Below, piece after piece: positions 18,938-21,381 of a stretch of DNA of 35,772 bases. Position 1 is the stretch's first letter, and each line of letters starts with the position of its first letter. The notes under the pieces are model-generated. The model saw nothing but the letters and a program-made list of their open reading frames with translations. It was not told the origin of the DNA and ran no database searches. This DNA comes from a phage. Location: the NCBI GenBank assembly GCA_019566835.1, contig GCA_019566835.1_3045.2. One strand, given 5' to 3'. Both the position numbers and the translations under genes were made by a program.

Positions 18938-19363
18938 TTATTCCTTAAAGTGTGCTTTCAGCATTTGATACAAGGACCATGCCTGTTCATTATTTTCAAT
19001 AGTAACTTTCATGACAGGAAATTCTGTGAAATCTTCTATTTGTTCTTGCTCTTTCTCTTCCTGCTCTTGCTCTTCAGCTGCCTGATATGGATTTTCCACT
19101 TCATCAAAGAACTCGGCTTCGTTAGTAGAGAGCCAGATAAAGTTTTCGTCAAGGATATCACCATGTGTTGCATATCCAATTGTGCCAGTAAATGACATAA
19201 TTTTAGTAGGACGACCAAGATGGTCAACATCTAAAATTTTAAAAGGATGCATACCTAAACGTCGTGCATAAATTCCGTTATCAGTATGGTCTTTAATAAA
19301 AGCTTCTTGAGCTTGTTTATTTTTAAATTGATACCATTTATTAACTTCAAATCTAATAGCCAT
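18938..19363 (-). CDS. Hypothetical protein (141 aa)
   Basis: Start taken at [11 protein letters not shown] with SD GGAAGGA; acidic E/Q-rich linker. Confidence 0.65.
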
Positions 19364-19578
19364 TAATAAATTTCCTTCCAATAAGTTGTACCATCTTCAG
19401 TAATTTCGCGAAATACACCGTAAATTGGTTGTTTATCACCAACCTTTTCATACACATAAACCGAAGTCAAGTGAGTAAACTTAACGGTATGTTCTTTTTG
19501 AACTACTACCAAATCTGGATCGAATAATACATCTTCAAATTCGTCATTAGTGCAATTCTGAACAATTTTACGTTTCAT
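19363..19578 (-). CDS. Hypothetical protein (71 aa)
   Basis: ORF tiled between neighbouring minus-strand genes. Confidence 0.6.
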
Positions 19579-19591
19579 TACAATTTCCTCA

Positions 19592-19861
19592 TTAATTGAA
19601 CAGTGGAGCGATGCGTTTCAGAAGAGTAGCAGCACCTTTAGCGAATTTTACATCATGAAAAACAGTTTCTTCTTCTGTAACAACTCGAACTTTAATATTT
19701 TCACAATCCCAATTTTTACGAACAATCTTCAAAAGCTGCAGTAAATCTTTACATTCAGCAATATCGATAACACATCCACGAGAATCTTCCATTATCGCAC
19801 GATAACCGTAAGCCATACCATAATCATTGAAAGATTGCTCGATGATAATTAAGTTTTCCAT
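19592..19861 (-). CDS. Hypothetical protein (89 aa)
   Basis: Start taken at MENLIIIEQ with SD GGAGAATAAA. Confidence 0.6.
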   Translation of the reverse strand: MENLIIIEQSFNDYGMAYGYRAIMEDSRGCVIDIAECKDLLQLLKIVRKNWDCENIKVRVVTEEETVFHDVKFAKGAATLLKRIAPLFN

Positions 19862-19885
19862 TTTATTCTCCAAGTTGTTTTCTGT

Positions 19886-19928
19886 ATCAGTAGTTGATAT
19901 TGATATAGTACCATAATCAACTACTGAT
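19886..19928 (-). promoter_or_regulatory. Promoter-like element with extended -10 inside a 13-bp inverted repeat
   Basis: Minus strand reads TGG-TACTAT with no GTTTAC at -35; the -10 is bracketed by ATCAGTAGTTGAT and ATCAACTACTGAT. Confidence 0.35.
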
Positions 19929-19968: not shown

Positions 19969-20388
19969 TTATGCTAAAGCTGCTTCGCACCATTTTTTAA
20001 TTTGGAATTCAGGAACTACCATGAACTGGCCTGCAAAAACAATATTGTAGAGCTTGACACCATCTTCTACCCAACGGTCCGAAATAAAACCAGCGACTTG
20101 ATTCGTTGTCCATGGAGTTCCATCTGTTGCCGCCGCAATTGTGAATTTATGGTCTTTTACAACTAAAACTGAAGAACAAAGTTTCCATTTAAATGCGCTT
20201 TCTTCTGGCTCAATGAACTGACTTGAGACATAACCAATGTTACCATCAGCGTCACGAACTTTAACCTCGTTACGACCAAAAACTGGATCACTTACAGAAA
20301 GAACTTCAACCAGCTTTCCTGCAACTTTAGAACGAGAAGCAACGGATACATATACGTAATCACCAGTAGAGAGATTTGCAATATTCAT
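19969..20388 (-). CDS. Hypothetical protein, paralog family member A (139 aa)
   Basis: SD AAGGA. Shares the N-terminal SRSK-AG-LVEV block and the C-terminal GF-TD-W-EDG-KLYNIVF module with the next gene. Confidence 0.7.
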   Translation of the reverse strand: MNIANLSTGDYVYVSVASRSKVAGKLVEVLSVSDPVFGRNEVKVRDADGNIGYVSSQFIEPEESAFKWKLCSSVLVVKDHKFTIAAATDGTPWTTNQVAGFISDRWVEDGVKLYNIVFAGQFMVVPEFQIKKWCEAALA

Positions 20389-20397
20389 AATAATTCC

Positions 20398-20871
20398 TTA
20401 AGCTTTACGAGGAGAAGCATAACGAGTGATTTCAGATTCTTCAACAACCCGGAAGTCACCTAAGAATACGATATTGTAGAGCTTTTCACCATCTTCAACC
20501 CATTGGTCTGTGATGAAGCCACACATCCTATCAGTTTTACTTGGACCAGCGAAATCATCAATATAATCGAATTCTTCATCAGTTACAAATTCAACGCCTT
20601 TACACAACGCCCATTTAAATTGTGTATTAGACTCAGTGGATTCAACTTCTTCAACAGAAGCAAAATGAGAGCTAACACGAGTTTCCAGAAATTTAGGACT
20701 TACGTAAGCGTACTGAGTTTCAGTTTTTCCAGAACCAGGAATGATTCGAACTTTAACTTCTTTAACACGACCAGTACCATTAGTACGAAGTCCTACCACT
20801 TCAACTAGACGACCTGCAGCTTTAGAACGAGATGCAGACGATACACGCTTAATTTCACCGATAGTAATCAT
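20398..20871 (-). CDS. Hypothetical protein, paralog family member B (157 aa)
   Basis: Start taken at MITIGEIKRV, because the longer in-frame ATG lies inside the upstream promoter. Same conserved N- and C-terminal blocks as member A. Confidence 0.7.
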   Translation of the reverse strand: MITIGEIKRVSSASRSKAAGRLVEVVGLRTNGTGRVKEVKVRIIPGSGKTETQYAYVSPKFLETRVSSHFASVEEVESTESNTQFKWALCKGVEFVTDEEFDYIDDFAGPSKTDRMCGFITDQWVEDGEKLYNIVFLGDFRVVEESEITRYASPRKA

Positions 20872-20914
20872 AATTTTTCTCTCTTTGTTGTTAAGATTTA
20901 TACTCCGCAGGACC

Positions 20915-20944
20915 ATTATACTCTGGTCCCAAGAGTTTGTAAAC
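20915..20944 (-). promoter_or_regulatory. T4-type early promoter
   Basis: Minus strand reads GTTTAC, 18 nt, TATAAT, with a second GAGTATAAAT about 20 nt downstream. Confidence 0.55.
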
Positions 20945-21381
20945 TAGCTTACACGAACATTAATCACTGCGCTGCGAGGAACTACAGAGTACTCTCCAGC
21001 ATGAACTACGTTCAGAAGTTCAACACCATCTTCAATCCACTGATCAGTCACCCATCCACCCACAGGATTCGCGAATGGACGACGAATATAAACTGCCTTA
21101 CACAGCAGATCAGTTGGATCTTCAGGTTTTTCAATTTCTGTCAATAGACTAAAATCTTTTTCATAAATAATAAGCGGTGATACCATTCCATAATAGTTTC
21201 TAATTTCAATATACATCATACCGATAAGAATTCCGCTATTAACACTAATAACAGTAAAAGGATATCCGCCAGTTAAACCAAGAAGTTCACAAAACTTATT
21301 ATGAGCTGTATTAGACAGTACCGAAAAATTCTTAATTTCATCAAATTTTTTCAATTGATAAACAGCATTATTTTTAATCAT
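20944..21381 (-). CDS. Hypothetical protein, paralog family member C (145 aa)
   Basis: C-terminal GWVTDQWIEDGVELLNVVHAGEYSVVP matches the shared module of members A and B; the N-terminus is unrelated. Confidence 0.7.
   Translation of the reverse strand: MIKNNAVYQLKKFDEIKNFSVLSNTAHNKFCELLGLTGGYPFTVISVNSGILIGMMYIEIRNYYGMVSPLIIYEKDFSLLTEIEKPEDPTDLLCKAVYIRRPFANPVGGWVTDQWIEDGVELLNVVHAGEYSVVPRSAVINVRVS

Follow-up and report, generated by a model that had tools for sequence, protein, structure and literature searches.

The locus examined here raises the question of whether three small neighbouring phage genes are held together by a common C-terminal module and, if so, what that module may do. The window, i.e. 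the whole stretch of DNA that was analysed, is a contig of 35,772 nucleotides (GCA_019566835.1_3045.2). Within positions 19969-21381 it carries three consecutive open reading frames on the minus strand that encode proteins of 139, 157 and 145 aa, with coordinates and lengths as first noted. The first-pass annotation had regarded them as a tandem array of paralogs and had proposed diversified effectors with a common partner-binding module, possibly for counter-defence or host takeover. The window belongs to a Tequatrovirus and has 98% nucleotide identity with phages RB27, RB3, GiZh and REP1. The gene order cef, motB-like, motB, motB.1, motB.2, dexA is the same in the window, in GiZh and in RB27. 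Because of this identity, the common gene order and the Pfam and PHROG matches described below, the three genes are identified by sequence as the early genes motB-like (19969..20388), motB (20398..20871) and motB.1 (20944..21381, all on the minus strand) of a T4-type phage. In GiZh they are annotated as "motB-like protein", "motB" and, at the motB.1 position, "transcriptional regulator", with cef and goF on their downstream side and motB.2 and dexA on their upstream side; the 157-aa gene is named motB in RB27 as well. The trio is collinear with T4 except for indels and resides in the early, non-essential cef-dexA region of the Tevenvirinae genome.

All three proteins exceeded the curated gathering score of 25 bits for Pfam family PF17613 ("motB, modifier of transcription"). 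The 157-aa MotB matched over its full length with 140.6 bits (E=5e-41), the 139-aa MotB-like protein reached 71.6 bits (E=9e-20) and the 145-aa MotB.1 reached 32.7 bits, the match of the latter being restricted to residues 104-139, that is, to the module. MotB and MotB-like fall into phrog_1671, MotB-like transcriptional regulator (E=9e-68 and E=1e-50, respectively), and MotB.1 falls into phrog_2333 (E=9e-68). The relationship between the three genes was already known: MotB and MotB.1 were reported in 2021 to have a common C-terminal domain and differing N-terminal domains, based on an alignment of 102 phage homologs (Patterson-West et al., 2021, PMC7827196). The same study described extra copies in several phages, RB69 having two motB genes, one motB.1 gene and a 29-aa remnant (PMC7827196). 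Our analysis is hence a confirmation of this relationship and a rediscovery of low novelty. What it adds to the published work is small, namely a partition of charge between the domains and the extra-base origin of the 119-aa MotB.1 of T4.

In pairwise BLASTP comparison, the 139- and 157-aa proteins aligned along their entire length with 41% identity (E=1e-29), the 157- and 145-aa proteins matched with E=4e-14 and the 139- and 145-aa proteins with E=2e-11, where in the last case the similarity (17 of 32 residues identical) was limited to the module. The common C-terminal module claimed for the three genes was also recovered by a module HMM and, for MotB and MotB.1, by profile-profile comparison, in which the C-terminal domains aligned over 36 columns with 98.2% probability (E 3.6e-14). 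With these three approaches in agreement, chance similarity was ruled out; the similarity is significant by both alignment and profile search. The module comprises G100-P126 of MotB-like (GFISDRWVEDGVKLYNIVFAGQFMVVP, 20011..20091), G118-E144 of MotB (GFITDQWVEDGEKLYNIVFLGDFRVVE, 20440..20520) and G109-P135 of MotB.1 (GWVTDQWIEDGVELLNVVHAGEYSVVP, 20977..21057), each encoded on the minus strand. Within this 27-residue core, G-[FW]-[IV]-[ST]-D-x-W-[IV]-EDG...VV, pairwise identities amounted to 20/27, 15/27 and 14/27. The motif originally given for the module matched in its core, but not in its closing VVP, since the middle protein of 157 aa closes with VVE. When all six frames of the window were searched with the module HMM, the three copies were found (E 1e-26 to 2e-29) and no further one, the next best match having E=0.41. 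Conservation across the family is highest in the C-terminal domain, and the invariant residues are the D, W, G, N and V of [ST]-D-x-W-x-E-x-G-x-x-L-x-N-x-V.

The N-terminal domains behaved differently. The N-terminal block described for the first two proteins is present, as ASRSK[VA]AG[KR]LVEV and FKW[KA]LC, and MotB and MotB-like are full-length paralogs that consist of a KOW-like N-terminal barrel, a linker and a C-terminal barrel. No similarity was detected between the N-terminal domains of MotB and MotB.1 by profile-profile comparison (probability 0.2%). Neither an internal duplication relating N- and C-terminal domains nor a remote kinship of the MotB and MotB.1 N-termini had sequence support (hhalign probabilities at most 0.8%), and both ideas were rejected. 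The plan of a KOW-like N-terminal domain followed by the conserved C-terminal domain was thus found in the 139- and 157-aa proteins and not in the 145-aa protein, which has an unrelated N-terminal domain and belongs to the MotB.1 branch. MotB.1 is a MotB-type C-terminal barrel placed behind an LSm/SH3-like N-terminal domain of the GoF/Frd.2 type. This agrees with the report that the N-terminal domain of MotB.1 is an LSm/SH3-like barrel common to GoF and Frd.2 (Kim et al., 2025, PMC12152347).

An exhaustive profile search over 1.84 billion representative proteins yielded 30 hits at E<=0.001, and in 28 of them the module was located at the C-terminus or within about 20 residues of it. The regions ahead of it were KOW-like, single or doubled LSm-like, or of other sequence, and KOW-like N-terminal domains occurred with either a MotB-type or a MotB.1-type flavour of the C-terminal domain. 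The description of a constant C-terminal domain on variable N-termini therefore holds well beyond the three genes, in these 28 of 30 hits and with several kinds of N-terminus. As judged from the sequences, the trio arose through duplication and domain shuffling. A large protein database contained 374 family clusters; PF17613 was present on every listed one, and the named entries among those listed were all proteins of T4-type phages or nominally bacterial. By tblastn, relatives were found in 763 phage records, overwhelmingly from phages of Enterobacterales, the named genera including Escherichia, Shigella, Klebsiella, Enterobacter, Edwardsiella, Kosakonia and Yersinia; the records that were inspected were T4-type. 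Many distant family members (P0127, P0129, P0132-P0135, P0138, P0140, P0145-P0148 and P0070, with P0148 having a weak version) carry a short, conserved motif D-x-D-[VIL]-[AE]-x-M-Y-x-T in the linker that precedes the C-terminal domain. The motif resembles a short linear interaction motif, and none of the three proteins of the window has it.

AlphaFold2 models of MotB and MotB.1 were built on family alignments. The MotB model (pLDDT 81) consists of an N-terminal barrel (residues 1-62), a disordered acidic linker (66-81) and a C-terminal beta-barrel (84-157) with strands at 92-105, 109-126, 129-136 and 139-144, a short helical turn and a strand at 148-152. In the MotB.1 model (pLDDT 80.5) an N-terminal domain (about 1-84; a helix and strands at 7-10, 42-49, 55-61, 67-73 and 80-83) precedes a C-terminal barrel (about 90-145) with the same strand plan as in MotB. 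In these models, the module takes in the latter half of strand 2 as well as strands 3 and 4, each with the turn before it (the EDG turn and the G turn, respectively). The MotB model matched the KOW domains of NusG, Spt5 and RfaH at 1.6-1.9 A, the aligned domain of the model being unspecified, and its resemblance to small barrels (the KOW domains of NusG and Spt5, the tandem Tudor of 53BP1 and the Tudor of PHF19) is one of fold alone, at 6-19% identity. No solved structure of a relative turned up when PDB sequences were searched by profile (best E 0.54). With the MotB.1 model, Foldseek retrieved T4 P39415 (E 6e-14) and GoF of phage VR7 (E 5.6e-3, probability 1.00, 91 columns). Membership in PHROG 2333, the predicted strands and the Foldseek matches all assign the N-terminal domain of MotB.1 to the GoF-like LSm fold. 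The goF gene (18938-19381) itself lies 1.5 kb downstream of motB.1, and given the likeness of the GoF and MotB.1 N-termini, the region holds two overlapping domain-sharing families, one with the LSm-like N-terminal domain and one with the MotB-type C-terminal domain. In the SH3-like order, a helical turn stands before the last strand, whereas in the OB-fold a helix lies between strands 3 and 4. Because a helical turn precedes the last strand in the models, we infer that the C-terminal domain would be SH3/Tudor-like and MotB a tandem of two small barrels.

For 47 members of the family, net charge was computed domain by domain. MotB-type members carry +4 to +9 in the N-terminal domain in most cases and +1 and +2 in two, the linker is acidic, and the module ranges from -6 to 0 in all members. 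In the group of the 139-aa paralog, the positive charge of the N-terminal domain is gone (-2 to +1). T4 MotB has a net charge of +6 and a computed pI of 9.23, equal to the published value, with +5 in the N-terminal domain and -1 in the module. The partition suggests that the N-terminal domain is a DNA binder and that the module has some other function, with net charge being a crude proxy for DNA binding. The MotB of the window is a 157-aa positional ortholog of the T4 protein that agrees with it in domain plan, upstream early-type promoter sequence and neighbours. However, it is only 55-57% identical to the T4-type branch (162-163 aa), in spite of about 95% identity in the flanking DNA. The protein is also acidic overall, with a pI of 5.4 as compared to 9.2 for T4 MotB and a net charge of -3, owing to a greater acidity of the linker and the C-terminal domain than in T4 MotB; its N-terminal domain is still basic (+7). 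Since its coding sequence diverges from T4 far more than the DNA on either side, motB is a local hot spot of variation.

The two companions of motB also differ from what is present in T4. The motB-like gene is absent from T4. It adjoins motB, directly downstream, in Mosigvirus HX01 at about 85% nucleotide identity, and its product is 83-99% identical to the MotB-like proteins of RB68, RB51, ST0, mogra and others, i.e. to the RB69/Mosigvirus type of second copy (RB32ORF010c-like). The protein follows the MotB-type two-domain plan, but unlike MotB it has an N-terminal domain without net positive charge and a short linker that is almost gone. Over their common part, the 145-aa MotB.1 and T4 MotB.1 (Category 2 of Patterson-West et al., 2021) are 77% identical; both have the same N-terminal domain and the same position upstream of motB. 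In the T4 reference, however, MotB.1 is a protein of 119 aa (P39415, "uncharacterized 13.8 kDa protein") that is missing most of the module, which is intact in the window. The cause is one extra G at about 2495-2520 of NC_000866 (corresponding to about 21010-21020 in the window) that cuts motB.1 within the module (GGATTGGAAGATGG versus GGATTGAAGATGG). The extra base is found in AF158101 and NC_000866 only, whereas 13 other records of at least 99% identity (eleven T4 isolates, including T4T, as well as RB55 and RB59) are without it and have the 110-nt version; T4_ev151 encodes a 144-aa MotB.1 with the full module. Because of this confinement to AF158101/NC_000866, the truncation is probably a sequencing error in the reference or a stock-specific mutation. 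This matters, as published MotB.1 constructs were designed from NC_000866.4. Phages with an intact MotB.1 and a second copy of MotB are better systems than the T4 reference for addressing the function of the module.

The locus varies further among related phages. HX01 has both motB copies and a motB.1 reduced to a 22-aa remnant (L003:3396-3464). One family member, P0014, is a 173-aa chimera of a MotB N-terminal domain and a MotB-like C-terminal domain, and another, P0004 from phage BYEP01, is a 43-aa fusion in which the N-terminus of MotB.2 (MKIYRVESSFSIL.YED) is joined to the end of the MotB.1 module. Because the chimera, the fusion, the remnant and the loss in T4 all fit such a process, they suggest repeated unequal recombination between the module repeats, together with deletion, in this region.

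For the function of these proteins, T4 MotB is the point of reference. This abundant early protein is toxic to E. coli and increases burst size about 2-fold (PMC6070864). [quoted passage not shown] MotB alters the H-NS footprint, and 75 host genes, about one third of them H-NS-repressed, are upregulated (PMC7827196). DNA compaction by MotB is attributed to Son et al. (2021), as cited in PMC12152347 and PMC13096335. A role in host takeover, as suggested in the first-pass annotation, fits this picture of a nucleoid-associated early protein that changes H-NS binding (PMC6070864, PMC7827196). The three proteins are MotB-family paralogs, and the explanation that adds to this nucleic acid-binding N-terminal domains and a module with a common function other than DNA binding is, taken as a whole, slightly better than an even bet. 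Their role would resemble that of T4 MotB, in which a nucleoid-associated protein of the phage coats the DNA, shifts H-NS and aids host takeover. The basic KOW-like N-terminal domain of MotB would bind DNA, and the LSm-like N-terminal domain of MotB.1 might bind RNA. The acidic-to-neutral, putatively SH3/Tudor-like module would have a function common to all family members, most likely self- or hetero-association or docking to one nucleoid partner rather than direct contact with DNA. This specific division of labour, with variable N-terminal domains binding nucleic acid and a constant non-basic module associating or docking, has at most an even chance of being correct in our estimation. Its practical pointer is that a module that is never basic and is predicted to be SH3/Tudor-like makes the N-terminal domain the suspect for DNA and the C-terminal domain the suspect for protein association.

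Several observations speak against this reading. Since the MotB of the window is acidic, extending the tight DNA binding of the T4 protein to it is an extrapolation. Attempts to show a DNA-independent contact between MotB and H-NS failed (PMC7827196). Deletion of motB.1 caused no phenotype in T4 (PMC12152347). The proposed role of the module in binding a common partner is not supported, and in the published view the C-terminal domain might bind DNA itself. The module belongs to a known and named family, which answers only half of the objection that it might be a known structural domain of defined function.

At such size, small barrels of the OB and the SH3-like kind are not easily told apart, and this lends weight to an alternative that we regard as somewhat unlikely, in which the C-terminal domain is an OB-fold DNA binder and all three proteins are DNA-coating nucleoid proteins whose N-termini modulate this activity or add functions to it. 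In contrast to the SH3/Tudor-like topology read from our models, HHpred assigned the C-terminal domain of MotB to the OB-fold (cold-shock DNA-binding, SCOPe b.40.4.5), and the authors considered that either domain might bind DNA (PMC7827196); this published call counts against our preferred reading. The position of the C-terminal domain as the most conserved part of the family would likewise fit a core activity. Under the preferred assignment of a non-DNA function to the module, one could also imagine a mixed "viral chromatin" in which MotB, MotB-like and MotB.1 form homo- and hetero-oligomers via the module or bind to one common nucleoid partner such as filaments of H-NS/StpA. We rate this extension as distinctly unlikely; if true, its composition would vary between phages with the paralogs that they carry.

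Counter-defence, the other role that had been put forward, would require that the trio are diversified effectors which dock via the module onto one component of host defence or immunity. We judge this to be very unlikely, even though the genes lie in an early, non-essential and highly variable region, their copy number and composition vary (T4 is without the 139-aa copy, HX01 without motB.1, and chimeras occur), and H-NS can be viewed as a xenogeneic-silencing defence that is relieved by MotB (PMC7827196). In the literature searched, no protein of the MotB family was tied to a defence system. Knock-down of motB had a general 2-fold effect on burst size on ordinary laboratory strains (PMC6070864), the motB.1 deletion is silent (PMC12152347), and the association of MotB with H-NS requires DNA.

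That the extra copies are mere redundant by-products of unequal recombination between module repeats, heading for loss, is hardly credible: although the P0014 chimera, the P0004 fusion remnant, the 22-aa remnant of HX01 and the lack of the 139-aa copy in T4 attest to a fluid locus, this copy is only 41% identical to MotB and yet intact at 83-99% identity in many Tequatrovirus and Mosigvirus genomes (the sequence representing its 90% cluster is by itself present on 126 contigs), which indicates old divergence under purifying selection, and the consistent loss of basic charge from the N-terminal domain in its group points to changed function rather than decay.

The claim that the second gene has its own early promoter stands at the level of prediction. 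A site resembling a sigma-70 or T4 early-type promoter (TTTACA-17-TATAAT, 20915..20943 on the minus strand) matches in 11 of 12 positions, the best value in the region. It begins right after the stop codon of motB.1 and fills the gap between motB.1 and motB, upstream of the latter. Over about 46 nt the site is base-for-base the same in T4, despite the diverged coding sequence next to it, and the GiZh annotation marks it as promoter-like. A longer motB reading frame of 172 aa was rejected, as its ATG (20916) falls inside the -10 hexamer and the orthologs in the databases have 157 aa. Because 9 nt separate the stop codon of motB from the start of motB-like, the two genes are probably co-transcribed from the predicted promoter at 20943..20915 and translated in tandem.

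Downstream of motB-like, a further minus-strand reading frame of 93 aa (phrog_3720, 19592-19873) precedes cef. In its T4 version the first few and the last approximately 60 nucleotides are kept and about 210 nt are deleted internally. The window contained no known RNA family at gathering thresholds. The intergenic stretch between motB-like and this reading frame is wholly identical in T4 and harbours a strong hairpin (19886-19928, minus strand) with an outer stem of 13 bp and an inner stem of 5 bp, at -23.5 kcal/mol for its 96-nt context (z = -4.8 versus shuffles). A classical intrinsic terminator was rejected, as no T-run follows the hairpin, which might act in the processing or stability of RNA or serve as a binding site for a protein.
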